The position numbers and the translations under genes were made by a program. A stretch of 32,000 nucleotides of DNA. Source: Oscillospiraceae bacterium (GTDB lineage: Bacteria; Bacillota; Clostridia; Oscillospirales; Ruminococcaceae). The notes under the pieces are model-generated. The model made no database searches. It saw only the letters and a list, made by a program, of their open reading frames with translations, and was not told where the DNA came from. Each line of letters begins with the position of its first letter. Position 1 is the stretch's first letter. Location of the stretch: the NCBI GenBank assembly GCA_031547945.1, contig JAVBRN010000005.1:18585-50584 (forward strand), given 5' to 3'. This document shows positions 1,576 through 28,999 of the stretch, one piece after another.

Positions 1576-1578
1576 CGC

Positions 1579-1866
1579 GTAAATCCTTATATGAACCGCT
1601 AGGAAAACAAAAGCACAAAGCGTTCGGGTCGTCGGCCTATGCAATTCCGCCTCAGCCACCCGATTGACGTGGGGCTTCGCCCCGCATCCCGGAGATGAAT
1701 GACAAGGTCGATGAACGGAAACCAGCGTAGAATCGGCAGTTCCTGCAGCCGAAGGCTTATTTCCTCCCATGGAGTTTGGGGACGACGCCCAATGGATTGG
1801 CAGAAGTGGGTATCTTTCGGCCGTTGGCTATTTTGTGCACTTTTCGCCGCCCGGGATTCTTTGACA
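1579..1866 (-). repeat. structured intergenic repeat, copy A. Strand is the one reading GCGAAAAGTGCACAAA ... TATAAGGA.
   Basis: Aligns block by block with copies B-E (GCACAAAGCGTTC, CAGCCACCCGATTGACGTGGGGCTTCGCCCC, GGAAACCAGCGTAG, GGGTATCTTTCGGCCG, TTTTGTGCACTTTTCGCC, TTCTTTGACA). The right-hand hairpin is partly decayed. Confidence 0.75.
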
Positions 1867-1871
1867 ACCCG

Positions 1872-1934: not shown

Positions 1935-2849
1935 TTATGCTTGATTTCCAACCGACAGAAGCTGCAGATAATAAACACCGCCATCGTTTTTGATTGCAAA
2001 GCACAGCTCCTGCATGCCACAGTCAAAATCTTCCAGTTCGTCCTTCTCTTGATTGTAGAACGTTGCGAGGATGTGTGCGCGGACACGGACGCTTTCCGCT
2101 GTCTTTTCGACGATTTCCACCTTGCCCCCCTCTGGACAATATCCCTCTACACCGCCAATTGCTGACGGACCATAGACATCATACTCTTCCAAAAAGTACG
2201 GCGGATAATAACCCTGATTTTTTGGAATGTTGAATTCTGTAATGTCTATGCCAAACATTCTCATCCCGCGCAAATCCATCTCTTCCCGCGCGACACAGCT
2301 TCCGTCAATATTTTCCACATGGATTTTTTCCGAGAGGCTATAGCAAGACCACATAATGGATTCTTGCAAGTCCGGATCCGCATATATCGAACTTGGTTCA
2401 ATCGCGTAATAGCGTATATTCGAAAGGTCCTCGCCCGATGCGCGTAACAGGTCGCAGAATAGTACTAGCGCTTGGGCTTGGATATCTGCGTCCGGGATGT
2501 TGGCGGATGAATAATAATACTGTCCAACCAACGTCGCCGGCGGCAGCTCGCTCTCCGTACCCGAACCAATTTCAGGTCCCGTTTCCGATTCCGTGATTGG
2601 ACTCGGCACGCTGAACAGGCTGACGAGCACGATCGTAAGCACGGTAAAGACGGCGACCGCGCCCAAAACGATTGCGGTGATCGCGCCGCCGCTCAATCCT
2701 TTTTTTTGCACGGGTTGCTGATATGCCGGTTGCTGATAATTTGGCTGCTGGTAACCCGGCTGCTGATAACCCGGCTGCTGATAGCCCGGCTGTTGATAGC
2801 CCGGCTGTTGATTTTGTTGTCCTTGTGATGGATCGTTGTTATAATTCAA
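1935..2849 (-). CDS. hypothetical single-pass membrane protein with an N-terminal (QQPGY)n low-complexity repeat
   Basis: 304-aa ORF. The N-terminus is MNYNNDPSQGQQNQQPGYQQPGYQQPGYQQPGYQQPNYQQPAYQQP, followed by one hydrophobic helix (GGAITAIVLGAVAVFTVLTIVLVSLF) and a ~200-aa C-terminal domain. A terminator follows. I recognise no family. Confidence 0.7.
   Translation of the reverse strand: MNYNNDPSQGQQNQQPGYQQPGYQQPGYQQPGYQQPNYQQPAYQQPVQKKGLSGGAITAIVLGAVAVFTVLTIVLVSLFSVPSPITESETGPEIGSGTESELPPATLVGQYYYSSANIPDADIQAQALVLFCDLLRASGEDLSNIRYYAIEPSSIYADPDLQESIMWSCYSLSEKIHVENIDGSCVAREEMDLRGMRMFGIDITEFNIPKNQGYYPPYFLEEYDVYGPSAIGGVEGYCPEGGKVEIVEKTAESVRVRAHILATFYNQEKDELEDFDCGMQELCFAIKNDGGVYYLQLLSVGNQA
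2711..2815 (-). repeat. seven tandem 15-nt units (CCGGCTGCTGATARC-like) encoding the QQPGY repeats
   Basis: Read directly. Units start at 2711, 2726, 2741, 2756, 2771, 2786 and 2801, and the central units differ by only 1-2 nt. Confidence 0.8.
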
Positions 2850-3277
2850 ACTTACATCCTCCCAATCTTACATTTTCCGTCACATTGTAACGTATTTCAG
2901 CATATTTTGCAATAGTTCACCTTTTTTGATATGTCTGTGCAAACATTTTGTTGCTTCGATACGAGAATCTTATTCCTCGCGCCAACAAGTGCGCTTACCG
3001 GAAAGATCATAATAGGCACAGAAATCTGACGGCTCCCTGCGATCTTGTCTGCACATAAATCTAAAAATCGCGGCTGTTTTTCATCCTGAATTGGCTCAGT
3101 TCGCAGGTCTGCTCTCAAAAACGAGAGTGCGGCTACGTTTGAAATAGGTGCCCGAGGTCAAAAAACTTGATCGGTGACGCGTAATCAATACTTTTAGAGC
3201 CGTTATGGATGCCATTCCATAGACAGTAATGAATCTCGGATTGGTTTGATCTCTTACACACTTACCGCCAGACACAA

Positions 3278-3313
3278 CAGGAGCACAAAGGCTGACCGGC
3301 CCTTGTGCTCCTG
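3278..3313 (-). terminator. possible terminator hairpin after the ParB-like gene
   Basis: CAGGAGCACAAAGG-loop-CCTTGTGCTCCTG, about 50 nt beyond the stop at 3362. The tail on the minus strand is weak (TTGTGT). Confidence 0.4.
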
Positions 3314-3361
3314 CTGCTGTGTGTATGTTGGAAGAACGGCTATCGAGTGTTGGTGGCGCTG

Positions 3362-4192
3362 TCAGACAGCGCTGGTTTTGGGCTCGAGCTCCATATGGGT
3401 TCCGTTGTGGGATGGAATTTTCACGACATATTCCACCAGTCCGTCATAATCGTGTCGCTCGGTCGTCGCGTTGACGCCCGCCTGTTTCATAATCTCAATG
3501 GCTTTTTCAATGGTATTAAAGAAGATGCGCACATCTTTCACCGCCATGGTTCGCCTGGGCGTCTCGGCACTGTCCAGACCCAGCCGCTCCCGCAGCTGCC
3601 AGGCGCGTTCCTCAATGTCTCGCGCCGGGTTTTGCAACCCAAAGAACAGCTTGTCCCGTTCACTTTTTGGCAGCGTCAAAATTCGGTTTGCAGCTTCTTG
3701 CGTTACGCCGGCTGCGCGGCAGAGCTCGATGCGTTCGTCGCCCAGCGCCAGCAGTTTGATCTTGTTTTGGATTTCTTCCGGCGGAATGCCGATTTGATCG
3801 CTTAGGGAATCGTAATCATTAATTTTTAGCTTGTCTATCAGCCCTGCAAGCAACTTTGCTGTTTCAAAACAACTGGGCGGTTCCCGGTATATGTTCTCAC
3901 ATAGCTGTGTAAAGGGCGCCTGCCCAGCTGCGATTACAAATGCCGGCACATGTTTCAAGCCTAGTTGTATTGCCGCCTGCAACCGTCGTCGTCCAGAGAC
4001 CAGCGTGTACCACAATTCCAGTGGCTCTCTTGAGACAATAAGCGGTTGTACAATGCCTCCCGCGCGGATGCTCTCTGTGAGCTGTTGCTGCTTGTCCGCG
4101 TCGTTAACCGCCCAACAAGCGGCGCCTGGTGTCTTGATCATATTGGTCCGAATCATCAGTGCCCGCAGCTTCTTTTCGGTCGACCGAGCCAT
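3362..4192 (-). CDS. ParB/Noc/Spo0J-family protein (ParB N-terminal domain plus HTH), divergent CTP-binding motif
   Basis: ParB-type blocks are GIVQPLIV, LVSGRRRLQAA (in place of GERRxRAA) and ENIYREPP. The C-terminus (VKDVRIFFNTIEKAIEIMKQAGVNA...EYVVKIP) is typical of Firmicutes Noc/Spo0J. It sits next to rsmG, as noc does in Bacillus. I prefer the ATG at 4192 (GGAAAGG upstream) over the GTG at 4216. Confidence 0.8.
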   Translation of the reverse strand: MARSTEKKLRALMIRTNMIKTPGAACWAVNDADKQQQLTESIRAGGIVQPLIVSREPLELWYTLVSGRRRLQAAIQLGLKHVPAFVIAAGQAPFTQLCENIYREPPSCFETAKLLAGLIDKLKINDYDSLSDQIGIPPEEIQNKIKLLALGDERIELCRAAGVTQEAANRILTLPKSERDKLFFGLQNPARDIEERAWQLRERLGLDSAETPRRTMAVKDVRIFFNTIEKAIEIMKQAGVNATTERHDYDGLVEYVVKIPSHNGTHMELEPKTSAV

Positions 4193-4285
4193 ACAAAACC
4201 CCGCCTTTCCTATCACTACGATAGCATAGAGGCGGGGTGTTTACCAGTTAATTCGTTCCTCAAAAAACGGCGGTTTTCGCGCTCT

Positions 4286-4996
4286 TTAGCGCTTTTTCAG
4301 CGGAATTTTTAAGATATTTTTACTTATTCTGGGATAGTTTGGCGGTGTTTGCGATATCTTTTTAATTTTCACGACCGCACGCGTGATTTCGCCTGGCAGC
4401 GTAAACTTTTCAACAGCAGTCACGCTGCCCCCTAATATCGCAATCGCGTCGGCCGCTTCCCCGCGTTCCTGCTCCACCTCCGGTCCTTTCATCGCAAGCA
4501 GCATTCCGCCCACTTTCACGAGTGGCAGCGCATATTCGACCAGCGCGCCAAGCGGCGCGACGGCGCGCGCGACCGCGGTGTCAAACTGCTCGCGCATTGC
4601 GCCGCGCGCGAGTTCTTCCGCGCGGCCGTGCACGGTGCGCACGTCAATACCAAGCTGTTCACAGGCCTGTGCAATGAATCGCAGCTTTTTATCGGTCGCG
4701 TCAATGAGTGTTACTTGCAATGCGGGGCGCACAGTTTTCAACACAACACCCGGGAAACCCGCGCCGGTTCCGACATCAACGACACTGCCTATAAGCTCCG
4801 GCATGGCGCACAGCGTGAGGCAATCGAGCACATGTTTCACTTCGATCTCACGTGGCTCGGTAATCGCCGTAAGATTCAGATACCGATTCGTTTCCACGAC
4901 GCAGGCGCAGTAAGCATCTAATATTGAAGCCTGCGCATCCGTCAATTGAACCCCATATTCCTGCGCCTCTTGCAGCAACCGCGCCAGATTCAGCAT
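4286..4996 (-). CDS. rsmG: 16S rRNA (guanine527-N7)-methyltransferase RsmG (GidB)
   Basis: 236 aa with the SAM-binding motif VVDVGTGAGFPG, the expected length, and conserved synteny downstream of mnmG. Confidence 0.93.
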   Translation of the reverse strand: MLNLARLLQEAQEYGVQLTDAQASILDAYCACVVETNRYLNLTAITEPREIEVKHVLDCLTLCAMPELIGSVVDVGTGAGFPGVVLKTVRPALQVTLIDATDKKLRFIAQACEQLGIDVRTVHGRAEELARGAMREQFDTAVARAVAPLGALVEYALPLVKVGGMLLAMKGPEVEQERGEAADAIAILGGSVTAVEKFTLPGEITRAVVKIKKISQTPPNYPRISKNILKIPLKKR

Positions 4997-5050
4997 TTGT
5001 GTCTCCCTTTCCGTTCAACTGATTTCATCTCAATTTGCGTTTAGATCAGT

Positions 5051-5350
5051 GTGTCAAACAAGTCCTTAATAGAACGCAAAAACGATAAAATGCACATGGC
5101 GTTCCGTTCCTCGGCCGTTGCCATCCCGCCCCAGCCACCCGATTGACGTGGGGCTTCGCCCCACACGCCGAAGGTGAAATGGCAGGTCGACAAACAGAAA
5201 CCAGCGTAGTCAGGCAGTTCCCGCATCCGACGGCCTTTCTTTCCTTCAGCGGTTTGGGGCGAAGCCCCAATTGATTGGGCGGCAGGGATGGGTATCTTTC
5301 GGCCGCCGGAAATCTTTGTGCACGTTTTTGCGGCCTGGCGTTCTTTGACA
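5051..5350 (-). repeat. structured intergenic repeat, copy B (best-preserved; used as the reference)
   Basis: Termini GTGTCAAACAAG / TTCTTTGACA. There are two mutually reverse-complementary hairpins, GTGGGGC-ttc-GCCCCAC (5148..5164) and TGGGGC-gaa-GCCCCA (5254..5268). Nested outer pairings are TGCACA/TGTGCA, TTCCG/CGGAA, CGGCCG/CGGCCG and CCATCCC..GCC/GGC..GGGATGG. Confidence 0.8.
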
Positions 5351-5486
5351 GCCAGTTAAACAGCATTCTTTTCAACATGTCTTTTTTAGAATGTCAAAAA
5401 CTTTGCTGTGTGTGTCGGTCACCGCGGTATGCGCTATACCGTCTTTTCTCGACATTTTACTGCATGCCGTCCGTGCAACCCCGCGA

Positions 5487-7352
5487 TTATCGCCCGTTCT
5501 TCTTTAAAAAAACCGTCAATACTGCGATATCCGCCGGATTGACCCCGCTGATGCGCGCCGCCTGCCCCAGCGAAAGCGGTTTGACTTTATTGAGCTTGTC
5601 GCGCGCCTCGATGCGCAATCCCGTCACTGTAGCATAATCCAGCGCTGCCGGCAGCACAGCATCCTCCAGCCGGCGCTGCTTTTCCACCGCCGTTTGTTGT
5701 CGCCGGAGATAGCCGGCATATTTGATCTCAATTTCCGCGCGCTGTAAAATCCGCGTGGGGATTTCTGCCAGATTCGGATCAAACGGCACTAGATCCGTGT
5801 AACTGATGTTGGGACGCCGCAGCAGCGCAGCAATCGTCGCGCCGGAGGTCAGTGATGCGGTTCCTTTTTGCGCCAGCATCGTGTTCAGCCCGTCACTCGG
5901 CGCGAGCACTGTTTTTTCCATGTGCGCAATCTGTGTTTCGAGCTGTTCCTTATTTTGTAAGTATACGCTATATTTCTCATCATCTACCAATCCCAGCGCG
6001 CGGCCTTTTTCGCACAGCCGCAGGTCGGCGTTATCCTGCCGCAGCAGCAGCCGGTATTCACTGCGCGACGTCATCATGCGGTAGGGCTCATTTGTACCTT
6101 TGGTTGTGAGGTCGTCGATGAGTGTTCCAATATAGGAATCCTGGCGCGTCAGCACAAACGGCGCGCGCCCAAGCGCGCGATGCGCCGCGTTGACCCCCGC
6201 GACAAACCCCTGCGCTGCCGCCTCTTCATAGCCGCTTGTACCGTTGAACTGGCCGGCGCCAAACAGCCCAGAGATGCCTTTATATTCCAGCGTGGGCAAC
6301 AGCGTCTGCGGGTCACAGCAGTCATATTCAATCGCGTAGGCCGCGCGCATCAGCTCGATGTGTTCAAATCCCTCGATTGTGCGGTACATCTCCATCTGCA
6401 CATCGAGCGGCAGCGAGGAGCTCATGCCCTGCAGATACATCTCGTCGGTGTCAATGCCGCAGGGCTCCACAAAAATCTGGTGCCGCTCTTTGTCCGGGAA
6501 CCGCACGACTTTGTCCTCGATCGACGGGCAATAACGCGCCCCCGTCCCTTTGATGATACCACCATAGAGCGGCGATCGGTGTAGGTTTGCGCGGATGACC
6601 GCATGGGTACGCTCGTTTGTATGCGCGATATGACACACCACTTTGTTTTCGGGCGCAGGATTCATAAAACAATAGGGAATTGTATTTTCGTCGCCATACT
6701 GCACACCCAGTTTGGTGAAATCAATACTTCTGCGATGCGCGCGCGCCGGGGTTCCTGTTTTAAACCGGCGGATTGGCACACCGTGTTCCATCAAGTTTTT
6801 GGTCAGCGCGGTTGCGGCGCGAATCCCGTCCGGACCGGATGTGTATCCGGCGTCGCCGACATATATTTTCCCGCCAAGATAGGTGCCTGCCGCAACAATC
6901 ACATTCTCGGCACGGTAAGTCGCGCCTAGCAACGTCTGTACCCCCTGCACCGCACTATTTTCAACGATAACCGCGACAATTTCATCCTGTATGATATCCA
7001 AGCCTTGCTGTGCTTCGAGTGTGCGTTTCATATACGCGTGATAGGCGCGGCGGTCGCTCTGCGCACGCAAAGAATGTACAGCAGGTCCCTTCGCCAGATT
7101 CAGCATCCGGCTTTGCAGCGTTGTGGCGTCGGCGGCCTTACCGATCTCGCCGCCCAGCGCGTCCAATTCGAAGACAATATGTCCCTTTGCCGTGCCGCCG
7201 ATCGACGGATTGCACGGCAGGTTGCCAATCGCGTCTAACGACAGGGTAAACACCGCCGTTTTTGCACCCAGACGCGCCGCGGCCAGCGCGGCTTCGATAC
7301 CCGCGTGCCCCGCGCCGATGACAATTACCTGGTATCGCTGAAACAGTTCCAT
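5487..7352 (-). CDS. mnmG: tRNA uridine 5-carboxymethylaminomethyl modification enzyme MnmG (GidA)
   Basis: 621 aa with the N-terminal FAD fold VIVIGAGHAGIEAALAAARLG and full-length GidA-type sequence. Confidence 0.97.
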   Translation of the reverse strand: MELFQRYQVIVIGAGHAGIEAALAAARLGAKTAVFTLSLDAIGNLPCNPSIGGTAKGHIVFELDALGGEIGKAADATTLQSRMLNLAKGPAVHSLRAQSDRRAYHAYMKRTLEAQQGLDIIQDEIVAVIVENSAVQGVQTLLGATYRAENVIVAAGTYLGGKIYVGDAGYTSGPDGIRAATALTKNLMEHGVPIRRFKTGTPARAHRRSIDFTKLGVQYGDENTIPYCFMNPAPENKVVCHIAHTNERTHAVIRANLHRSPLYGGIIKGTGARYCPSIEDKVVRFPDKERHQIFVEPCGIDTDEMYLQGMSSSLPLDVQMEMYRTIEGFEHIELMRAAYAIEYDCCDPQTLLPTLEYKGISGLFGAGQFNGTSGYEEAAAQGFVAGVNAAHRALGRAPFVLTRQDSYIGTLIDDLTTKGTNEPYRMMTSRSEYRLLLRQDNADLRLCEKGRALGLVDDEKYSVYLQNKEQLETQIAHMEKTVLAPSDGLNTMLAQKGTASLTSGATIAALLRRPNISYTDLVPFDPNLAEIPTRILQRAEIEIKYAGYLRRQQTAVEKQRRLEDAVLPAALDYATVTGLRIEARDKLNKVKPLSLGQAARISGVNPADIAVLTVFLKKNGR

Positions 7353-7564
7353 TGGTTCTCCATTTAAATCTATTGTTTATACACAGGTGGAATTGTATAA
7401 GGCAATTTCCGTTGCCCTTTAAACAGTTTCGCCCAACCAAGTCGCCGCGCTATGCGTTTAGCAATTGCCCGAACATATTGCAATCCGCTTCGCAGCTCCT
7501 TCTTTTCCCGCGGCGCTTTGTTGGCTCGCTGGCTTTGCCCTAACGATAGTAGAGCAATAAAATC

Positions 7565-7790
7565 ATGCCGAATCGTTGCGGCCTTGTATTTCTTGATTTG
7601 GGTTTGGGGCGAAGCCCGAATAGCCGCCAGTGACGTGTCGCTAAACTGCTGGCAAGGTCAAAGACAAAGGGGGTTCCGGCAGGCGTAGCGCACGACGACG
7701 CGTGAGGCACAGGACTCCTGCAACGTAACACTTTGCAGGACAACGAAAATGCAGCAAGCGGCGGGTACCCATCCGGTTTATGGCGATCGC
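7565..7790 (-). repeat. degenerate, rearranged copy F of the structured repeat
   Basis: 7567..7617 (CCGAATCGTTGCGGCCTTGTATTTCTTGATTTGGGTTTGGGGCGAAGCCC) matches the CCGCATCCGACGGCCTTTCTTTCC..GGTTTGGGGCGAAGCCCC half of copy B. Downstream pieces (TGACGTG, GGCAAGGTCAAAGACAAAG, GGCGTAGCG, GCGGCGGGTACCCATCC) resemble other blocks but are out of order or locally inverted. Confidence 0.35.
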
Positions 7791-7868
7791 GACAAGGCGG
7801 GGACGCGCGCTTAACGGCTCTTTTCTTTACACGTTTCCTCACTTTGGTCTCTTGCGGCGCGTGCATTC

Positions 7869-12557: not shown

Positions 12558-12923
12558 CTACTGCGTGCTGTTTTGCAATCCGCTGCCCGGAATGACGCCA
12601 GCCTTCTCCAAATGTCCGCGCAGAACCTTTTGGATCTGGGTCGATTTCTTTGAGAGAATCGCTTTCCGGCACACAAACACGATGTCGTAATGGCCGTCTG
12701 CTCCGCGCAACAGCGCGGCTGCGGCAGCTTTTACGACTCTTCGCGCGCGGTTGCGCTGTACGGCGCCCCCTATTTTTTTGCTCGCGGTAATCCCCATCTG
12801 CACGCCGCCGTACCGGCGCCGCACCACATAGGTGACCACAAAAGGCGAGACAAAACACAGTTTGCTTCGATAGGCCCGCGTAAACTGAAAATTCTTGTTT
12901 ATCGGGCGCGGCAGTTGTGCCAT
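12558..12923 (-). CDS. rnpA: ribonuclease P protein component
   Basis: 121 aa with the basic RNR motif region ASKKIGGAVQRNRARRVVK, directly downstream of rpmH. Confidence 0.9.
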   Translation of the reverse strand: MAQLPRPINKNFQFTRAYRSKLCFVSPFVVTYVVRRRYGGVQMGITASKKIGGAVQRNRARRVVKAAAAALLRGADGHYDIVFVCRKAILSKKSTQIQKVLRGHLEKAGVIPGSGLQNSTQ

Positions 12924-12965
12924 CTGCTTAAAAATAAGAGCCAGCCCGCTGTTACGGTTGGCTCT

Positions 12966-13100
12966 TTAAGCACTGAGGCGAGCTCTGCCGCGAGCGCGAC
13001 GGCGCGCCAATACTTTGCGGCCATTGCGGGTGGACATGCGTTTTAAAAAACCATGTTCGCGCGAACGGCTGCGCTGTTTCGGATGATAGGTCGGTTTCAT
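12966..13100 (-). CDS. rpmH: 50S ribosomal protein L34
   Basis: Not in the ORF track because it is shorter than 60 aa. My translation is [44 protein letters not shown] (44 aa), with AAAGGAG 8 nt upstream of the ATG. Confidence 0.93.
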
Positions 13101-13143
13101 GAAATTACTTACTCCTTTAAAATAGATCCTTGCAGAAAATAAG

Positions 13144-13171
13144 TATATATGATAAGGAATTTACTTGTCAA
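13144..13171 (-). promoter_or_regulatory. sigma-A-type promoter for the rpmH-rnpA-yidD-yidC-jag string
   Basis: The minus strand reads TTGACA-16 nt-TATATA (or TTGACA-18-TATACT), about 40 nt upstream of the rpmH ATG. Confidence 0.5.
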
Positions 13172-13381
13172 GGTGGATTTTATGGATATCCGCCTGTTTT
13201 GGGGCATCTGTCTTCTTTTTGTCTCAAAAAATGATACAGTTCCGCTGTCTTTGTTATAAATCTGTTTTCGTTTTTTGATGTTGTTCTATTATACCATGCT
13301 GCTACAAAAAAGACCATGCCATCTTTTGGCGCGCAGCGGATAATAACCTGTCTTTTCCCCTGGATTCCTTGCCCTTTTTTG

Positions 13382-13410
13382 TTGAAACAGGACATGTTTT
13401 ATGTTATACT
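13382..13410 (+). promoter_or_regulatory. candidate dnaA promoter
   Basis: TTGAAA (13382..13387), 17-nt spacer, TATACT (13405..13410), about 130 nt upstream of the dnaA ATG. Confidence 0.45.
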
Positions 13411-13538
13411 GTCTACAGTGTATTATAATATGTAATATTTTAAAGAATTGGTGTGCGGAAAAGAACAAAGATTTCGAAAAATCTCTTGTTCTTTTTTTAG
13501 GAGTTCTCCCCATTTTTTTGTTATCAAAGGGGTTTTTT

Positions 13539-14840
13539 ATGGAGTCGTTTGAACAGGTTTTTGCTGCCGTGAAAACATATTGCCGTGAATCGGAATCCGA
13601 AACAATCTACAATCTCTGGCTGCAAGGCATTGAGCCCGTTTCCTATACGGACGGGATCGCGACGCTCTCGGTAAGCACGGATTTTATCAAAGCTACTGTT
13701 GAAGATCGCTATTTAGTGCTTGTCCAGCGTGGGTTTCAGCAAGTGATGGGGTTTGACGTTCCCGTCCAAATTGTCAGCCGCGCTTCGGTGCCGGCGACCG
13801 CACAGGTTGTGCCCACACAGACACCGGAAGAATCGTATACCTTTGAAAATTTTATTGTTGGACAAGATAACCGCTTTGCCCACGCGGCGGCGCAGGCCGT
13901 CGCCGCAAATCCGGCGCGTGCTTATAATCCACTATTTATCTATGGCGCGTCCGGCCTTGGCAAAACACACCTGCTGCACGCCATCAAAAACGAATTAAAA
14001 AAAACAACCCCGTCCATTAAAGTTCTGTATATCGGCGGCGAGCAGTTCACCAACGAACTGATTGCCGCGATTGCCAGCGGCAATACCGAACCTTTTCACG
14101 ATAAATACCGTTCTGTCGATGTTTTGCTGGTGGACGATGTCCAGTTCATCGGTGGAAAAGAAGCGACACAGGAAGAGTTCTTCCACACCTTTAACGCGCT
14201 GCACAACGCGCAAAAACAAATTGTCCTCACCTCTGACCGTCCTCCAAAAGAGATCAAATCGTTGGAAGAACGGCTGCGCACACGCTTTGAATGGGGACTG
14301 CTTGCGGATGTACAGCCGCCGGATGTGGAAACGCGGATTTCTATTCTCTATCGCAAAGCGGAATTGCTTGGGCTGGAACTACCGTCCGATGTCGCCGATT
14401 TTATCGCGAACAACGTCAAAAGTGATATTCGTCAATTAGAGGGCGCTGTTAAAAAAATAAATGCTTATTTTCAAATGGATGGGATCACGCCATCAATCGG
14501 TCTTGCGCAAAACGCGATTCGCGACATTTTGTCCGAACAACAGCCCACACCGATCACAGTGGAAAAAATCATCGGCGAAGTTGCGCGGACCTTCAGCGTT
14601 TCCGCAGATGACATCCGGTCTTCTAAACAAAATGCTGCTGTCTCCGCCCCGCGGCAGATCTCTATGTATATTGTTCGTGAGGTGACAGGTATGACCATGG
14701 AAAAGATTGGTCAGGAGTTTGGCGGCCGCAACCATGCAACCGTTGTCTACGCAATCAGCAAAGTGGAAAAACAGATGGAGACCGATTCCCGCACGCGGGA
14801 ACTCGTGGAAGACATCATTAAAAACAGCCGGGGTTCCTAA
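13539..14840 (+). CDS. dnaA: chromosomal replication initiator protein DnaA
   Basis: Walker A GASGLGKTHLLHA, LLVDDVQF, and the C-terminal DNA-binding region GGRNHATVVYA. The start is set at MESFEQVF (ATG 13539, AAAGGGG 6 nt upstream) rather than the upstream in-frame start at 13401. Confidence 0.96.
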   Translation: MESFEQVFAAVKTYCRESESETIYNLWLQGIEPVSYTDGIATLSVSTDFIKATVEDRYLVLVQRGFQQVMGFDVPVQIVSRASVPATAQVVPTQTPEESYTFENFIVGQDNRFAHAAAQAVAANPARAYNPLFIYGASGLGKTHLLHAIKNELKKTTPSIKVLYIGGEQFTNELIAAIASGNTEPFHDKYRSVDVLLVDDVQFIGGKEATQEEFFHTFNALHNAQKQIVLTSDRPPKEIKSLEERLRTRFEWGLLADVQPPDVETRISILYRKAELLGLELPSDVADFIANNVKSDIRQLEGAVKKINAYFQMDGITPSIGLAQNAIRDILSEQQPTPITVEKIIGEVARTFSVSADDIRSSKQNAAVSAPRQISMYIVREVTGMTMEKIGQEFGGRNHATVVYAISKVEKQMETDSRTRELVEDIIKNSRGS

Positions 14841-15067
14841 AAAATTATCAACTGTTTATTTAACGATTAACAGCTTTTTTTCAACTGTTCGACATCTTCT
14901 TTGTGATACCTTGTTGTTTCCACAATTCTTTCACATTCGGTTCTGTTTTTTGAACGGCCAGCATATATGCGCCGTCATCGCAATTTATTCCACTTTTAAC
15001 AATTTTAACAGGCCCTACTACTACTTCTATCTAACAGTTTCTAGAAAGAGAGAAATGGAGAGCAATT
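14841..15067. other. dnaA-dnaN spacer: candidate oriC unwinding module with a DnaA-trio-like array
   Basis: GC cluster GGCCC (15011..15015) is followed directly by CTA CTA CTA CTT CTA TCT (about 15014..15033), which is TAG repeats on the other strand. Degenerate boxes lie upstream: GTTTCCACA (14917..14925), TTATCAACT (14845..14853) and TTATTCCAC (14986..14994). Confidence 0.45.
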
Positions 15068-16177
15068 ATGAAAATGACCTGTGATCGCAGTGAACTGCTT
15101 GAAGCTTTGACCGGTGTGTCCAAAGCCGTAAGCGCAAAATCTTCGATTCCAGCCATAGAGGGGATTTTGTTTAAATGTACAAATTACACTGCGACGCTGA
15201 CTGCATATGATTTGGAGATTGGAATTACGACATCGGTGACGGCACAAATAGAGAATCCGACGGATATCGTCATCAATGGAAAGCTCCTGATCGATATGAT
15301 TCGGAAAATAGAAGCAGACAGTGTGACCATCGAAACAACAGAAGAACTGAAAATCACAATCAAAGGCGGATTAACCCAATTTACAATTATGGGCATTCCG
15401 GCGTCCGATTTTCCGGAACTGCCTGTGCCGGAAGCCGAGGATACGATGTTGATTCCCGGCGCTGTGTTGCGTGAGATGATCGGAAAAACCATCTATGCTG
15501 TTTCTACAAGCGACCAGAAACCGGTACATACCGGCACAAAATTTATTTTGCAAAATAATGAGTTAACGATGGTTTCCGTCGACGGTTTTCGGCTGGCGGA
15601 ATGTAAAAAGAGTGATGTAACAATCAAAAGCGAAACATCATTTGTGGTGCCCGCAAAAACGCTGGTCGAAATCAGCCGCCTGATAGGAGACGGAGAAGAG
15701 GAAGTCAGCATTGGAACCGCGCGTCGGTACGGCGTCTTTAAGCTTTCTAATTATACCGTTGTAACACGGCTGCTCGAAGGAGATTTTCTCGATTATACAA
15801 AGTCGATCCCACAGGGATACCGGACGCGCGTTAAAATCAACGTACATTCCCTATACGACGCGGTAGAGCGCGCCTCTTTGATTATCAGCGACCGTTTTAA
15901 AAGCCCGGTCTGTATGGTATTTGAAGACCATTTTGTGCAGATCAGCTGTGTGACCGCGTTGGGCAACGCTTCCGACGAGCTCTCCTGCGAGACAGAAGGG
16001 GAGGTCGTAGAGATTGGATTTAACAATCGTTATATTATGGACGCGCTGCGCAACAGCGGGGAGGAAGAAGTCTATATGGAACTTAGCGGACCGCTTTCCC
16101 CCATCAAAATTGTGCCGGTGGACGGCGACGAATTTCTCTTTTTGGTGCTGCCCATCCGCATCAAAAACGCACAGTGA
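15068..16177 (+). CDS. dnaN: DNA polymerase III beta sliding clamp
   Basis: 369 aa with three-domain clamp length, GGAG 7 nt upstream, and canonical position after dnaA. Confidence 0.96.
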   Translation: MKMTCDRSELLEALTGVSKAVSAKSSIPAIEGILFKCTNYTATLTAYDLEIGITTSVTAQIENPTDIVINGKLLIDMIRKIEADSVTIETTEELKITIKGGLTQFTIMGIPASDFPELPVPEAEDTMLIPGAVLREMIGKTIYAVSTSDQKPVHTGTKFILQNNELTMVSVDGFRLAECKKSDVTIKSETSFVVPAKTLVEISRLIGDGEEEVSIGTARRYGVFKLSNYTVVTRLLEGDFLDYTKSIPQGYRTRVKINVHSLYDAVERASLIISDRFKSPVCMVFEDHFVQISCVTALGNASDELSCETEGEVVEIGFNNRYIMDALRNSGEEEVYMELSGPLSPIKIVPVDGDEFLFLVLPIRIKNAQ

Positions 16178-23063: not shown

Positions 23064-23100
23064 ACAGCTGCGCAGATTAATTCTGCGCAGCTGTATTTTT
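23064..23100 (+). terminator. Rho-independent terminator of gyrA
   Basis: ACAGCTGCGCAGA-ttaat-TCTGCGCAGCTGT followed by ATTTTT, 7 nt after the stop. Confidence 0.75.
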
Positions 23101-23569: not shown

Positions 23570-23715
23570 CTGCGCTTCAAAGCGGAGATGCAGGGGTCAC
23601 AAACCCCTTGGCAATCAGCGGCAGGGGTGAGTAAAAACGTGTCTGCCGACCAATGCCTGGAGAAAGCGGCATAGAAAAAAGGGCCGCAATAAGAAGATGC
23701 TTATTTACCCTAGGT
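23570..23715 (+). repeat. degenerate partial copy G of the structured repeat (the half that precedes the TATAAGAC end)
   Basis: GGAGATGCAGGGGTCACAAACCCCTTGGCAATCAGCGGCAGGGGTGAG aligns with GCAGATGCGGGGCACAGCCCCGCATC... of copy C, and with CCCCACGTCAATCGGGTGGCTGGGGCGGG of copy B (reverse complement). CTGCCGACCAATGCCTGG aligns with GGCCGACGAACGGAATGCCTTGG of copy E. Confidence 0.35.
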
Positions 23716-23881
23716 GGATGTACAAATAGCTCGAATAGCCGTCTTGTAATAGTCCGGGAAAACCGAAGGCATGTCATACAGACGGTGTCACACCAGTTTG
23801 ACAGAAGGACAGTTAGTCTGTAGCATCAAAGAGAGTTGTTACATTGAGTGGCAAAAAGAAAATGACATGGCAGGAGAGGGA

Positions 23882-24397
23882 ATGGATATTCGGCAAGAGA
23901 CACCGCAGGATTATGCCGCGGTTTACCTATTAATAAAAGAGGCCTTTGCCACGGCGGCCCATAGAGACGGTGACGAACAGGACTATGCCGCGGCGCTGCG
24001 GACAAAAGATAGCTTTATTCCCGCGCTGTCATTGGTTGCGGAAGAGAACGGGGAAATTGTTGGTCAGATTATGCTGACAGAGACCGAGATTGTCGACGGT
24101 ACGCGCAGACACGCCTTTTTGTTGCTCAGCCCGATCGCGGTTGCGTCCGCGCAACAAAAGAAAGGCATTGGCGCGGCGCTGATTGCGGAGAGTTTTAAAC
24201 GCGCAATGGCGCTTGGATATACAGCGGTGTTTCTTGTTGGCGACCCGTTATATTATAGGCGCTTTGGATTTTGGCCGACAATCAAATTCGGGATTCAGCC
24301 TCCGGATGGCTTGCGCGGGCACGAAGAAAATGTAATGGTCCGCGAACTGGAAGCGGGCGCGCTGCAAGGCATACATGGTGTCGCGGACATCTGCTAA
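23882..24397 (+). CDS. GNAT-family N-acetyltransferase
   Basis: 171 aa starting at MDIRQETPQDYAAV (AGGAGAGGG upstream). It has the acetyl-CoA motif QQKKGIGAALI and typical GNAT length. The upstream in-frame extension to 23771 is judged non-coding. Confidence 0.85.
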   Translation: MDIRQETPQDYAAVYLLIKEAFATAAHRDGDEQDYAAALRTKDSFIPALSLVAEENGEIVGQIMLTETEIVDGTRRHAFLLLSPIAVASAQQKKGIGAALIAESFKRAMALGYTAVFLVGDPLYYRRFGFWPTIKFGIQPPDGLRGHEENVMVRELEAGALQGIHGVADIC

Positions 24398-24412
24398 AAA
24401 AGCGAGACAGCG

Positions 24413-24439
24413 AAAAAGGATGGGGACCCCGTCCTTTTT
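24413..24439 (+). terminator. terminator of the GNAT gene
   Basis: AAAAAGGATGGG-gac-CCCGTCCTTTTT hairpin (one G-U pair) with an A-tract/T-tract, 15 nt after the stop. Confidence 0.65.
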
Positions 24440-24446
24440 CATTGCC

Positions 24447-24730
24447 GAAGAATCAACGTGTAGCGAAAAAGTGCACAAAAAAAGCCGACGGCCTAATGAT
24501 ATCCATCCCGGCCGCGCAATCAATGGGAGGGCTGCGCCCCAACAAACGGCCGCCGATGCGGGAAATTGCCGATACGGGGCTGGTTTTGTTTGTCGACCTG
24601 CTATTTCATCTTGCAGATGCGGGGCACAGCCCCGCATCCTGTCGGGCGGCTGGGTGGGGTTGCAAAGGTCGACGAAAATGGAACGCCTTGTGTATTTTTT
24701 CGTTCTCGCTTTTATAAAAAGACTTTTAAC
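24447..24730 (+). repeat. structured intergenic repeat, copy C
   Basis: Shares the identical 17-mer GCGAAAAAGTGCACAAA with copy E. It has all conserved blocks (ATGCGGGAAATTGCCGA, GCTGGTTTTGTTTGTCGACC, 10-bp hairpin GATGCGGGGC-aca-GCCCCGCATC at 24616..24638, GGAACGCCTTGTG, GTTCTCGC..TATAAAAAGACTTTTAAC). Confidence 0.8.
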
Positions 24731-24735
24731 GCGCG

Positions 24736-24764
24736 GAAAGGACGGGACATCTCGCCCTTTTTTT
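24736..24764 (+). terminator. imperfect hairpin plus T7 immediately after copy C
   Basis: GAAAGG-A-CGGG-acat-CTCG-C-CCTTT followed by further T residues (T-run 24758..24764). The stem needs one G-U pair and a 1x1 internal loop, so this is weak. Confidence 0.35.
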
Positions 24765-24907
24765 GGGAATTGCATTACAAATTGTTACGCTGATGTGTAG
24801 AAACAAAACCGCTGCGAATACTATAACAGGCGCTTAAACGGGCTGTTGTTCCGTGAATACAAAAGGCGCACCTGAACGATGATGTTTTAAGGAGAGGAAA
24901 ATACGAA

Positions 24908-25426
24908 ATGAAACGTTTTTTCACAATACTGTTGGCGGTCGCGCTTTCGTTTACTCTATTGACCGCATGTACAAAAAAACCGACAGAGGACCCAACGCCG
25001 CCGGTGGACCAGGGAACAGATAAAAACACGCCAGAGCCGACGATCAAGGCAGAAAAAGTTGAGATTATGATTGATACCGACGCCGCGATCGGGTCAATCA
25101 AAATATCTTATACCGGTGACACCTCCAAAACAACAGACAGCGCCGCGGATGCGAACCTTGCAAAGGGCGAAACAGTGACGCTGACGCTCGATAAAACAAC
25201 AACTGCCGAGGGATTTACGGTTACGGTATATGACAAAGACAATAAAGAGCTCGCAAAAAAAGAGTTTATGAAAACAGATCTGACAAATATGGAAGCGACT
25301 GTTATGCTGAAGGTCACCGATAAAGCGGGCGGCGGTATTGAAATTATGGAAAATACAACAGATGCCAACAACGGAGCGACCGAAAACGGCAACACCGATG
25401 ATCAGAATAAGAACCAAACCAGTTAA
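24908..25426 (+). CDS. small secreted lipoprotein, hypothetical
   Basis: Signal peptide plus lipobox MKRFFTILLAVALSFTLLTAC, AGGAGAGG RBS, a Thr/Asp/Lys-rich mature part, and its own terminator. It is visibly more A/T-rich than the housekeeping genes. Confidence 0.75.
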   Translation: MKRFFTILLAVALSFTLLTACTKKPTEDPTPPVDQGTDKNTPEPTIKAEKVEIMIDTDAAIGSIKISYTGDTSKTTDSAADANLAKGETVTLTLDKTTTAEGFTVTVYDKDNKELAKKEFMKTDLTNMEATVMLKVTDKAGGGIEIMENTTDANNGATENGNTDDQNKNQTS

Positions 25427-25440
25427 GCTGGCAAACAGTG

Positions 25441-25477
25441 AAAGAAACAGGCGGGCAATGGTTCCGCCTGTTTCTTT
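25441..25477. terminator. terminator of the lipoprotein gene
   Basis: AAAGAAACAGGCGG-gcaatggtt-CCGCCTGTTTCTTT followed by TTC. The symmetric A/T flanks allow function on both strands. Confidence 0.7.
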
Positions 25478-25494
25478 TTCGTCTGCCGCTATTT

Positions 25495-25760
25495 TACGCT
25501 GCAGTTATAGGAAAGAAAACAGAATGCACACAACGCGTTCCATCGTCGGCCCATGCAATCCCGCCCAGCCGACCGATGGAAAGCAGGGCTGCGCCCCGCA
25601 TCCGAAAGATGAACTAGCAGGCCGACAAACAAAACCAGCGCAGTTTCGGCAATTTCCCGCATCCGACGGCCTTTTATTTTCCGCATGGGGTTTGGGCGAG
25701 GCCCAATTTGACTGGGCGGCAGGAGTGGGTATCCTTCTTGACGAAAGGTTTTTGCACGGA
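25495..25760 (-). repeat. structured intergenic repeat, copy D (end distal to the lipoprotein gene is decayed)
   Basis: The plus strand reads ATGCACACAACGCGTTCC, GCAATCCCGCCCAGCC, GCAGGGC-tgc-GCCCCGC, GGCCGACAAACAAAACCAGC, AATTTCCCGCATCCGACGGCC, TGGGC-gag-GCCCA, GGGCGGCAGGAGTGGGTATC. By eye its closest relative is copy C, in inverted orientation. Confidence 0.75.
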
Positions 25761-26011
25761 TCCCTCTCGAAAATTGAAGCTTTGCGAGAGAATGGACGGG
25801 CAGCGGCGCGGGGCGCGTGCTGTACCTGCCAATCCTGCCGGCAGGCAGAGGTATCGGCCTGCGTTTGCCCAGATCGTTGTCGATACAATGCATTGTTTTT
25901 GGTTTCAAATGACGCCGCATGCTACGATTTGCCAGACCATTCCGCGTCAGGATGATTGCTTTTCGAGATCAAAGCTGGATAAAGGCGAAGCATTTATGCG
26001 AAAAAGTCAAT

Positions 26012-26042
26012 AAAAAAACAGCCGGTGTTCTCGGCTGTTTTT
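26012..26042. terminator. bidirectional terminator downstream of upp
   Basis: A7-CAGCCG-gtgttct-CGGCTG-T5, 14 nt beyond the upp stop at 26056. Confidence 0.7.
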
Positions 26043-26055
26043 GAACGCTTTGTGG

Positions 26056-26691
26056 CTACTTTGTGCCGAAAATCCGGTCGCCGGCATCGCCGAGGCCGGG
26101 GATGATATAGGCGTTGGCGTCTAATGCCTGGTCGAGCGCCGCACAGTAAACCGGCACATCGGGATGCTCTTGCGCCATGCGCTCGACCGCCGGCGTCGCG
26201 GCGACCAGGCAGACCAAACGCAGATCACGGCAGCCGCGCGCTTTTAAAAGTTCAATCGCCGCGGTAGCGCTGCCACCGGTTGCAAACATCGGATCAAGCA
26301 CAATTACCGTGCTTTCGGCAACATCGTCCGGCATCTTGCAATAATACTCCACGGGCTCGTGCGTGTCGTGGTCGCGATAGAGTCCGATATGTCCCACGCG
26401 GGAATGCGGCAGCAGCTTTTGCACGCCAGACACCATGCCAAGGCCGGCGCGCAGGATGGGCACAAGCGTGATGGGCTTGTCCGCCAGGACTTTGGTATGC
26501 ATCTTAGCCATGGGTGTTTCAATTTCGACTTCCTTTAGCGGAAGGTCTTTTGTCACCTCATAGACCATCAGCATCGAGACCTCGTCGACCAGCTCGCGAA
26601 AGTCTTTTGTCGAAGTGTTTTTGTCGCGCATGCGCGAAATTTTATGTTGGATCAGCGGATGGTTAAAGATAAAAGCGTTTCCCTCTTGCAT
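26056..26691 (-). CDS. upp: uracil phosphoribosyltransferase
   Basis: 211 aa with the PRPP-binding motif [14 protein letters not shown] and C-terminal [16 protein letters not shown]. Confidence 0.95.
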
Positions 26692-26945: not shown

Positions 26946-28646
26946 TTAACGATTTTTTGCAAACGCGGCGGCGGCTGTCCCTGCGACACGGCCTGTCTCA
27001 ATCACCTCTGTCAGCGATGCGCCAAAACCGGGGAACCCTTTTAGATAATAAGCCCCGTTGATTGCTTCGCCCGCCCCAAACAATCCGGCGATTGCCTTGC
27101 CGTTCGCGTCGAGCACTTCGCAGTCCTCGCTGGTGATGAGCCCGCCGAGGGTACCATAGGAGCGCAGCGTCAAGCGAACGGCGCAATAGGGCGCCTGGTC
27201 AACAGCGCCAAGGAAGCGCACGCTTTTGCCATAGGCCAAGTCTGCCTTTTTTACACACGCATTGTTATAGCTTTCTACAGTAGATTCCAGTGTGTCCATT
27301 TTCAGCGCATCGGCCAGCGCGGCGACCGATTGTGCGGTCACAACAAGATCGGTATCCAGCCCCTTGCGGATCGCTTCCCCGTAAGCCGTTGCGTCTGTAA
27401 TCAAATAAGCATAACAATAGCCGCGCGCAAGCAAGGTATTGGACAGCGCAAACGGATCAGCGGCCTCGTTGCCGATACGCTGCCCCGCCGGATCGACAAT
27501 CAGGCCGGTTGTCTGAAATATGCCGGTATCTAAGTCTTCCAGCGTGGCCATTAACGCCGCGCTCTCATAGAGAGCGGCTCCCGCGCGGCGCGCCAGAGTG
27601 AGCCCGCTGCCGTCGCTGCCAAGGCCGGACATCGAAACGCCAATCTGCAAACCATATTGTGAAAGCAGCTGCTCGCTGCGGTCAAAACCACCGGAAGCGA
27701 TGACAACCGCGTTAGACTGCACGGTTACCAAAGTTCCGGCGGCATTTTTCGAGAGTACGCCAGCGACGGTGCCATATTCGTCCAGCAGTAATTCATATGC
27801 CTCGGTATTATATAGAATCGTCACGCCGAGATCGGCTGCACAATCGAGCAACGGCTGCAGCATATTGCCGCCGCCCGTTTCTGTTTCGGCTGCCGTTTGC
27901 AGAATGCGATTGGCATTTCCGTTGGCATCGGCGGAAAGGTTATCGGAAAAAGGAATGCCCAGATGCTGCAAAAAAGCAATATTTTCCGCGCTGCGCACAG
28001 CCATCGCGACATGCCGGTGCAAATCCAATTCTGCGTCACTGTATTGAAAGAGATCGGTTGCAAACAGGCTGACGCGGTCATCCGCAAACTGTTCCTGTTG
28101 TTTTGCGGTGCCGACCGCCATTATTTTGCCGTCGCTGCGCGCGGTGGAGCCGCCGGCAACGCCTAATTTCTCCAGCACGATGACGCGTGCGCCCGCTTGC
28201 GCGGCTTCAATGGCAGCTGTCAATCCCGCGCCGCCCGCGCCCACAACCGCGACATCGCAATTGTAGTGTGTTTGTATGTCGGGGAATAGCACGGGGTTTG
28301 CGCGCAACCGGTCTATGTCGACATGCAGTTTTGTCAGGGCGGCCTCCGCACAATGAATCGTCGCAAGACTGGACACCGTCGCGCCGGATATGACGTCGAC
28401 CGAGAGGCTTTGCGCGCGATTGATCTGCGCTACCGTTTTCTCCACGGCGAGGTCGCCGATGCCTGTTGTCTCCGTATGTTTTATCACAGAGAGCTGTACG
28501 CTGCCGTTGTCGCCAACCGCAGCCTGCAGCCAAATGTTGCCGCGATATCCTGCCACCGAAGCGGTTGCCACTTTGCCGGAACAGCCACAAAGTAAAAAAA
28601 GCAGGGATAGGCATAACATAACAGCACAATGCCGGCGGTTTATCAT
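26946..28646 (-). CDS. extracytoplasmic flavoprotein reductase: lipoprotein signal, FMN-bind domain and a FAD-binding fumarate-reductase/flavocytochrome-c-like domain
   Basis: Signal/lipobox MLCLSLLFLLCGCSG. FMN_bind domain with DVISGATVSS. FAD dinucleotide fold DVAVVGAGGAGLTAAIEAAQAGARVIVLEK..AGGST. C-terminal GLFGAGE. The substrate cannot be inferred. Confidence 0.85.
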   Translation of the reverse strand: MINRRHCAVMLCLSLLFLLCGCSGKVATASVAGYRGNIWLQAAVGDNGSVQLSVIKHTETTGIGDLAVEKTVAQINRAQSLSVDVISGATVSSLATIHCAEAALTKLHVDIDRLRANPVLFPDIQTHYNCDVAVVGAGGAGLTAAIEAAQAGARVIVLEKLGVAGGSTARSDGKIMAVGTAKQQEQFADDRVSLFATDLFQYSDAELDLHRHVAMAVRSAENIAFLQHLGIPFSDNLSADANGNANRILQTAAETETGGGNMLQPLLDCAADLGVTILYNTEAYELLLDEYGTVAGVLSKNAAGTLVTVQSNAVVIASGGFDRSEQLLSQYGLQIGVSMSGLGSDGSGLTLARRAGAALYESAALMATLEDLDTGIFQTTGLIVDPAGQRIGNEAADPFALSNTLLARGYCYAYLITDATAYGEAIRKGLDTDLVVTAQSVAALADALKMDTLESTVESYNNACVKKADLAYGKSVRFLGAVDQAPYCAVRLTLRSYGTLGGLITSEDCEVLDANGKAIAGLFGAGEAINGAYYLKGFPGFGASLTEVIETGRVAGTAAAAFAKNR

Positions 28647-28677
28647 AAAAAGAGGAAATCCTTTCTTTTACTAGGCT

Positions 28678-28964
28678 GGCAAAGAACCAAAGAGGGCGAA
28701 AAAGTGCACAAAAAGATCCGATGCCGAAAGATGCCCTGCCGCCAATCAAGGTGGGCTTCGCCCCAAACCACATTGATGGAAATAAAGACCGGCGAATGCG
28801 GGAAACGGCCGATTTTATGCTGGTTTCCGTTCGTCGACCGATCATCTCATCTCTGGGGTTGGGGCGAACTCCCCATCATCGGATGACTGGGGCGGATTGC
28901 AATGGCCGACGAACGGAATGCCTTGGGCGTCGTTCTCGCGTTGTATATAAGACTTTTTTAACAC
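28678..28964 (+). repeat. structured intergenic repeat, copy E
   Basis: GGCAAAGAACC..GCGAAAAAGTGCACAAA, GTGGGC-ttc-GCCCC, ATGCGGGAAACGGCCGA, GCTGGTTTCCGTTCGTCGACC, TGGGG-cgaact-CCCCA, GGAATGCCTTGGG, GTTCTCGCGTTGTATATAAGACTTTTTTAACAC. Confidence 0.8.
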
Positions 28965-28970
28965 GTTGCT

Positions 28971-28999
28971 TTTACATCTTTATTTTATTATGTTAAAAT
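28971..28999 (+). promoter_or_regulatory. candidate promoter of the acyltransferase gene
   Basis: TTTACA (28971..28976), 17-nt spacer, TAAAAT (28994..28999), with GGGGAG RBS before the ATG at 29027. It starts 7 nt after the end of copy E. Confidence 0.45.

Follow-up and report, generated by a model that had tools for sequence, protein, structure and literature searches.

In this work, we describe a family of repeated sequences, about 300 bp long and palindromic from end to end, found in a 32-kb stretch of an uncultured Clostridia genome (Oscillospiraceae bacterium, contig JAVBRN010000005.1), hereafter called the window. The window spans the replication-origin region: genes on its minus strand include parB, rsmG (4286-4996), mnmG (5487-7352), dcd, mnmE, jag, yidC and rnpA, while dnaA (13401-14840), dnaN, recF, gyrB and gyrA are on the plus strand. 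An initial annotation, made from the sequence alone, had listed five full and two degenerate copies of the repeat. The five full copies, named A to E and ranging from 284 to 306 nt, are recovered by a profile hidden Markov model (HMM) made from them (nhmmer E 1e-77 to 1e-97), by a covariance model covering a 154-nt core (120-159 bits), and by a degenerate 21-nt core pattern, whose matches coincide exactly with the five sites, 0 being expected by chance. As previously noticed, all of them are intergenic. Copies A, B and D are oriented one way, C and E the opposite way; pairwise identity among them ranges from 56 to 75%, and their core contains 55-63% G+C.

The most intact element is copy B (5051-5352, minus strand; nhmmer 319.8 bits, E 1.4e-97; covariance model 159 bits), located between mnmG and rsmG (gidB), with its end 54 nt upstream of the rsmG start codon. 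Copy C (24437-24740, plus strand; E 2.1e-85; 120.4 bits), which features a moderately intact foldback, lies between a GNAT acetyltransferase gene (23771-24397, plus strand) and an open reading frame (ORF) at 24908-25426, also on the plus strand. Copy E (28668-28972, plus strand; E 1.4e-81; 134.5 bits) is found between two divergent genes, encoding a flavoprotein (26946-28646, minus strand) and an acyltransferase (29027-30283, plus strand). The two remaining copies are located between convergent genes, and their palindromes are decayed. Copy A (1576-1871, minus strand; E 1.4e-84; 137.8 bits), lying between the PPDK gene, which ends at 1530 on the plus strand, and an ORF at 1935-2849 on the minus strand, keeps 62 of the 97 ungapped pairs of copy B; copy D (25485-25772, minus strand; E 2.3e-77; 148 bits), lying between the ORF at 24908-25426 and upp (26056-26691, minus strand), is in addition truncated at one end, and corresponds to profile positions 21-314.

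As for the two degenerate copies, fragment F is reduced to a marginal remnant of about 45-70 nt (7567-7638, minus strand; a 45-nt nhmmer match with E 6e-4, and covariance-model scores of 13.7 and 13.5 bits for the two strands at E about 0.015), containing one GGGGC-GAA-GCCC hairpin and its flank, and fragment G (23570-23715) was detected neither by the HMM nor by the covariance model. Fragment F falls within the mnmG-dcd spacer (7353-7868, 515 nt), which also contains short stretches matching the element when it is read in the opposite direction, such as TACCCATCC at about 7768, along with a 108-aa ORF (7540-7866) giving no Pfam hit. The content of this spacer may represent a heavily degraded or rearranged copy.

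The element is an imperfect palindrome along its entire length, and matches its own reverse strand with E values of 1e-11 to 1e-12. The ordered blocks described in the initial annotation are visible in the sequences, as are the outer pairings (TGCACA/TGTGCA, TTCCG/CGGAA, CGGCCG/CGGCCG and CCATCCCGCC/GGCGG..GGGATGG) and the two internal GGGGC-loop-GCCCC hairpins. In copy B, hairpin 1 (5149-5163) reads T-GGGGC-TTC-GCCCC-A, with a stem conserved in all copies, and hairpin 2 (5255-5269), its reverse complement, reads T-GGGGC-GAA-GCCCC-A. The long-range helix that had been proposed as an alternative to the two local hairpins is the one formed in the minimum-energy fold of B, where hairpins 1 and 2 pair together. 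Loops vary between copies, and in the second hairpin of copy D the loss of one G is matched by the loss of one C, both features being as first reported. The pair flanking the hairpin is, also as reported, T-A in B, C-G in C and T.G in A; in D, for which C-G had been claimed, this position holds an A.C mismatch, and the C-G pair is found one position further out.

The palindrome reaches the ends of the element. In copy B these read G-TGTCAAAcAAg and GC-TGTCAAAgAA, forming short imperfect inverted repeats included in the foldback; terminal repeats are recognizable but degenerate in A, C and E. The termini place TTGACA-like hexamers at both ends, facing outward. Immediately outside the left and right termini of B, the tetranucleotide CAGT may be read at 5047-5050 and at 5353-5356. 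Its presence on both sides may weakly point to a 4-bp target-site duplication, a match of this sort having a chance probability of roughly 0.05-0.2 once the latitude in setting the ends is considered; matching direct repeats flank none of the other four copies, A, C, D and E.

Folding potential, evaluated against dinucleotide shuffles, varies widely among copies. The entire 302 nt of copy B fold into a single near-perfect hairpin of 107 pairs (97 Watson-Crick and 10 G.U), with a minimum free energy of -149.6 kcal/mol and a z-score of -9.15, or -6.42 when DNA parameters are used. The z-score is -3.46 for C, -1.12 for E, +0.14 for D and +0.62 for A, the last three folding no better than shuffled sequence. 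When the pairing of B is projected on the alignment, 73.3% of the cells are paired, a share which falls to 37-51% once partners are shifted by 1-3 columns; outside B the figure is about 66%, and four of the five copies have about one third of their pairs broken. The claim that pairing is kept among diverged copies holds only in part: pairing does exceed the controls, and B and C fold better than shuffled sequence, but E, A and D are near random.

The analysis of substitutions gives a similarly mixed picture. Pairs changed on both sides are 19, against 11.2 +/- 2.3 in shuffles, a value reached in none of 500, and 24 of the 42 two-sided differences from B keep the pair, about 37% being expected by chance. 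One-sided differences, on the other hand, are pair-breaking in 111 cases and pair-keeping in 34. The overall pattern agrees with a structure which mattered in replicating source copies and then decayed in single insertions; it disagrees with purifying selection acting on an RNA at each locus. A further argument in favor of an RNA strand, drawn from a wobble pair next to one hairpin, proved inconsistent: the T.G of copy A favors one strand, while the mismatch of copy D can be a wobble only on the other. The initial observation is largely correct, while the case made for selection on structure is weaker than was stated.

The family appears to be restricted to its host lineage. An exact 27-position core pattern had no match in 185,579 GTDB species, each represented by one genome; three matches in JGI metagenomes and six in IMG/VR were attributed to chance, by alignment and by nhmmer, respectively; and blastn found no match in plasmid and phage collections. 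For Rfam, plasmids and phages, the initial view that the repeat is not a named family is confirmed. The HMM and the covariance model found no element in 1.28 Mb of mnmG-centered origin loci from 83 related Clostridia. The nearest relatives have MnmG proteins 78-79% identical, and two of their loci (L091, 78%, and L093) contain no match. In L091 the mnmG-rsmG spacer, which in this genome holds copy B, is 84 nt long, and comparison of this spacer with those of relatives revealed no alignable intergenic sequence. The absence from the nearest relatives and the 84-nt spacer indicate that the element was gained within this lineage; as judged from the spacers compared, this shows a lineage-specific gain, not transposition. 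As far as searched, the family is confined to one uncultured Clostridia lineage.

[quoted passage not shown] It is unannotated and without relatives in the searched collections, but of a well-known bacterial kind. The initial annotation had proposed either a MITE- or REP-like element or a family of structured RNAs. The former is the better supported of the two, because the palindrome spans the whole length and ends in imperfect TGTCAAA-type termini, because copies range from near-perfect to random-like folds and have accumulated many one-sided, pair-breaking substitutions, because the element is absent from the orthologous spacers of the nearest relatives, and because neither an Rfam match nor a promoter or terminator of its own could be found.

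Prokaryotic MITEs are described as elements shorter than 500 bp, devoid of a transposase gene, bounded by terminal inverted repeats of about 4-30 bp and dispersed in mostly intergenic copies, which are typically AT-rich and, when young, flanked by direct repeats (PMC10969869). In size, intergenic location and predicted stem-loop transcripts, and possibly in its termini, the present family corresponds to this published description (PMC10969869): its members measure 284-306 bp, share no ORF, give no Pfam hit and occur five times in 32 kb, in both orientations. Comparable families are ERIC in Enterobacteria, Correia (CREE) in Neisseria, QMITE2 in Coxiella and RUP in pneumococcus, which are likewise whole-length imperfect palindromes, shorter than 500 bp and lacking an ORF, with multiple diverged intergenic copies, often found just downstream of genes or in operons; their terminal inverted repeats are short and imperfect, as they may also be here, where copy B shows them best; long stem-loop transcripts are predicted, and outward-facing TTGACA-like hexamers are found in the termini, here as in those families. 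The new elements, however, show no detectable sequence similarity to any of these four, Rfam, plasmids and phages having given no match, are longer than ERIC (127 bp) and Correia (100-155 bp), and are rich in GC, not in AT; a possible target-site duplication is discernible, weakly, at a single copy, and no parent insertion sequence (IS) is known. The PATEs, derived from IS200/IS605, are small, non-coding elements with subterminal hairpins, possibly mobilized via single-stranded DNA. In this general comparison the present elements are similar, being small, non-coding, hairpin-bearing and possibly mobilized in the same way. In contrast, the hairpins of IS200/IS605 are direct, as required for recognition on the same strand, while those described here are reverse complements of each other, loops included; an IS200/IS605-type pair of ends was rejected on this basis, and neither TnpA nor TnpB is encoded in the window.

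In the scheme that we infer from these features, a source element would carry the short imperfect terminal inverted repeats TGTCAAA(G/C)AA and the two mutually inverted GC hairpins. An enzyme whose gene lies elsewhere in the genome would have distributed it among intergenic sites; this would be a transposase working on the termini, or else an enzyme of the HUH/Y1 type that uses the hairpins in single-stranded DNA. Pairing would be needed in the replicating source copies, which would account for the modest compensatory signal between copies; each copy would decay neutrally after insertion, which would account for A, D and E folding like random sequence. Copy B would be the youngest, or the best maintained. 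Since it lies in the mnmG-rsmG transcription unit, it is probably transcribed as a long hairpin, and this hairpin could affect the processing or the stability of the mRNA. Effects of this kind have been shown for other MITEs. The finding of an IS with terminal inverted repeats matching TGTCAAAGAA would favor a classical cut-and-paste MITE.

Several observations weigh against a decaying MITE- or REPIN-like family. No two copies are near-identical, and no presence/absence polymorphism is seen, one strain being available. The possible target duplication concerns one copy only. No related full-length IS was found in the 32-kb window, nor any gene for a transposase (as the initial annotation had stated), a RAYT, a TnpB or a Y1/TnpA enzyme. 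The G+C content of the elements, 56-63%, is high, whereas AT-richness is a typical, if not absolute, trait of MITEs. Moreover, the consensus of the copies folds only moderately (z about -3.4, and -1.7 without B), so that the palindrome of B is not simply that of the copy closest to the ancestor; being more perfect than the family consensus predicts, it indicates either a separate source lineage or the correction of one arm by the other. Finally, all five copies fold slightly better on the strand where C and E are '+', and on this strand G.T mismatches outnumber A.C ones, 115 to 80. The preference could hint at a constraint at the RNA level, and falls short of significance (two-sided p about 0.06 in a sign test, 5 of 5, and about 0.08 for G.T versus A.C).

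Such a constraint would be expected if the family were one of structured non-coding or cis-acting RNAs, read from that same strand and having the long hairpin as functional unit, for instance as an RNase III substrate, an mRNA stabilizer or a regulator of the downstream gene. We regard this as unlikely. It agrees with the lower RNA energy of all five copies on that strand, by 2.4-15 kcal/mol, with the excess of G.U over A.C, with the RNAalifold energies (-51.7 on that strand and -33.4 on the other), with the excess of double-sided changes and with genomic location, since transcription uses that strand in the tandem-gene contexts of B and C, and genes on the same strand lie downstream of B, C and E. 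However, A and D fold like shuffled sequence and E barely better, broken pairs and disruptive one-sided changes are frequent, and the wobbles of A and D conflict within the same hairpin. No sigma-70-type promoter is found at the 5' end and no consistent intrinsic terminator follows the element, a TTGTGC...TATAAG motif having spacers of 17-21 nt and failing the consensus scan. In line with the absence of riboswitch signatures first reported, Rfam 15 gave nothing at the gathering threshold in the window and nothing overlapping a copy at E<5, and copies B and C, searched alone, gave only chance-level matches at E<10. Unlike functional RNAs, the elements are conserved in no relative. In particular, A and D lie between convergent genes and have no downstream gene, for which reason a role as leader or riboswitch was rejected. 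Small protein-coding genes, of about 100 aa, may be considered effectively refuted. ORFs of 85-143 aa do overlap every copy (as at 5046-5378, 110 aa, and 24375-24800, 141 aa), but start, stop and frame differ among copies and no ORF is shared; in agreement with the initial annotation, which had judged coding unlikely, indels between copies are not multiples of 3, and the blocks conserved best are themselves interrupted by indels of 1-2 nt (a 1-nt one distinguishes GGTTT-TG from GGTTTCYG). The ORFs over the copies give no Pfam hit, a search of 5.8 billion proteins yielded no homologue, either for the 110-aa ORF of B or for the peptides of all six frames in the five copies, and long spurious ORFs are expected at this G+C content. 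An integron attC array, incompatible with the mixed orientations, and CRISPR were also rejected.

The elements could also be REPINs in the strict sense, the two GGGGC-loop-GCCCC hairpins being inverted REP units, the outer arms a lineage-specific extension, and the mobilizer a RAYT or an IS200/IS605-type Y1 transposase operating via single-stranded DNA; this, too, seems to us doubtful. REPINs are defined by inverted REP doublets folding into hairpins (PMC3116915), and in B the two inverted GC-rich palindromes, mutual reverse complements joined by a spacer, do pair into one larger helix. The hairpin stems are the best conserved of the paired parts, the matched loss of G and C in D preserves the stem, the elements are extragenic and, as in REPIN populations, intact copies are found beside decaying ones (PMC3116915, PMC3733652). 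The tetranucleotide CGTC abuts one hairpin in A and B, recalling CGTC-tagged REPs (PMC3733652), but in the remaining three copies neither GTAG nor CGTC is present, the same position being occupied, in the orientation of B, by GATG in C and E and by AAAG in D. At about 300 bp the elements greatly exceed the 20-40 bp of REPs and are also far longer than typical REPINs (3-10 times), and palindromy and conservation are not limited to the hairpins, but continue well past them as far as the termini; the window contains no gene for a RAYT or TnpA, and REPs are mainly proteobacterial. Far less probable, in our opinion, is a host chromosomal structure linked to the origin, such as a cruciform or a binding site for ParB, Noc, SMC or DnaA. 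It would explain the cluster on both sides of dnaA, with five to six copies within about 15 kb of this gene, and four of the five run in the direction of the leading strand; however, the orientation bias is not significant, and the clustering is judged within this window alone. No parS-like or Noc-box-like sequence occurs in the elements, the candidate oriC spacers beside dnaA contain zero copies, identity among copies is low (56-75%), and the origin regions of the 83 related loci lack the element. A combined hypothesis, that lineage-specific long-hairpin RNAs or cruciform DNA sites are kept around oriC on the strand co-oriented with transcription and replication, appears to us quite improbable; under it, copy B could be the functional archetype, for example a regulator processed by RNase III or a source of small RNAs, and its arms could stay complementary through selection or through arm-to-arm templated correction.

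If the preferred reading, a decaying MITE- or REPIN-like family, is true, a new member is added to this class from a poorly sampled, uncultured lineage, in a group of Clostridia where small mobile repeats have been little catalogued. No new mechanism is offered, unless the RNA-level or the origin-linked reading is true. Such repeats create spurious ORFs, here of 85-143 aa, can change the expression of housekeeping operons, one lying here between mnmG and rsmG beside the origin, and break short-read assemblies. An independent Logan contig (L001, corresponding to window positions 2783-5152) begins at 5152, within hairpin 1 of copy B; the break could mean that the genome holds, at another site, a sequence closely related to B, or could be induced by the palindrome itself.

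Terminator-like hairpins are found next to several copies. One of them, 36 nt long and with a perfect stem (1540-1575), abuts copy A, and its inverted twin, also of 36 nt (1875-1910), is found on the other side; in the repeat search the two are 97% complementary (35 of 36) and 299 nt apart. These two hairpins are the only places where the 13-mer ACACGAGGCTGCC occurs without mismatches. One has the loop CTGCG and the other CGCAG, a reverse complementation which indicates an inverted rather than a direct duplication. Both hairpins are far better preserved than the arms of copy A itself. Each of them probably terminates one of the two convergent genes; as to their origin, a template-switch duplication, an event associated with the insertion, or a separate repeat are all possible. 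Copy C is similarly bracketed by terminator-like hairpins (24405-24436 and 24741-24766), which share CCCGTCCTTT in inverted orientation, the downstream one being followed by T7. Copy D adjoins a hairpin at 25440-25480; the one next to copy E, at about 28655-28672, is weaker. Insertion of the elements may favor sites beside terminator hairpins, possible alternatives being, here too, a second small family of repeats or duplication by template switching. On the other side of copy D, about 240 nt of non-coding sequence (25773-26012), resembling nothing else in the window, separate it from the terminator of upp (26013-26045).

The host lineage is poorly represented in databases, the top MnmG identity in any public collection being 79%; the nearest GTDB species representative is an Oscillospiraceae metagenome-assembled genome, with an MnmG 66% identical. 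Apart from the source contig, of 91,884 nt, the same strain was sighted solely in the Sequence Read Archive run SRR23967709. Two short Logan contigs of this strain, L001 and L094, are 100% identical to the window, and L094, an independent assembly, matches copy E without differences. The one of these two that extends past the window, by 2.7 kb, contains no additional repeat copy there.

Within the window, the cumulative GC skew reaches its minimum, and turning point, at about 13-15 kb, and the rnpA-dnaA (12923-13401) and dnaA-dnaN (14840-15068) spacers are likely to be parts of oriC. A scan of the window for tRNA and tmRNA genes found none. Two Rfam matches below threshold fall within dnaA: AsdA (28.5 bits, threshold 52; 13941-13995, minus strand) and CRISPR-DR36 (25.7 bits, threshold 38; 13619-13663, plus strand). 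AsdA is an antisense RNA of the dnaA mRNA in Salmonella; the location of the match is curious, its score being far below the threshold. Directly 3' of gyrA, a palindromic hairpin with a perfect 13-bp stem (23064-23094) has the appearance of a bidirectional terminator, and has no relation to the repeat family.

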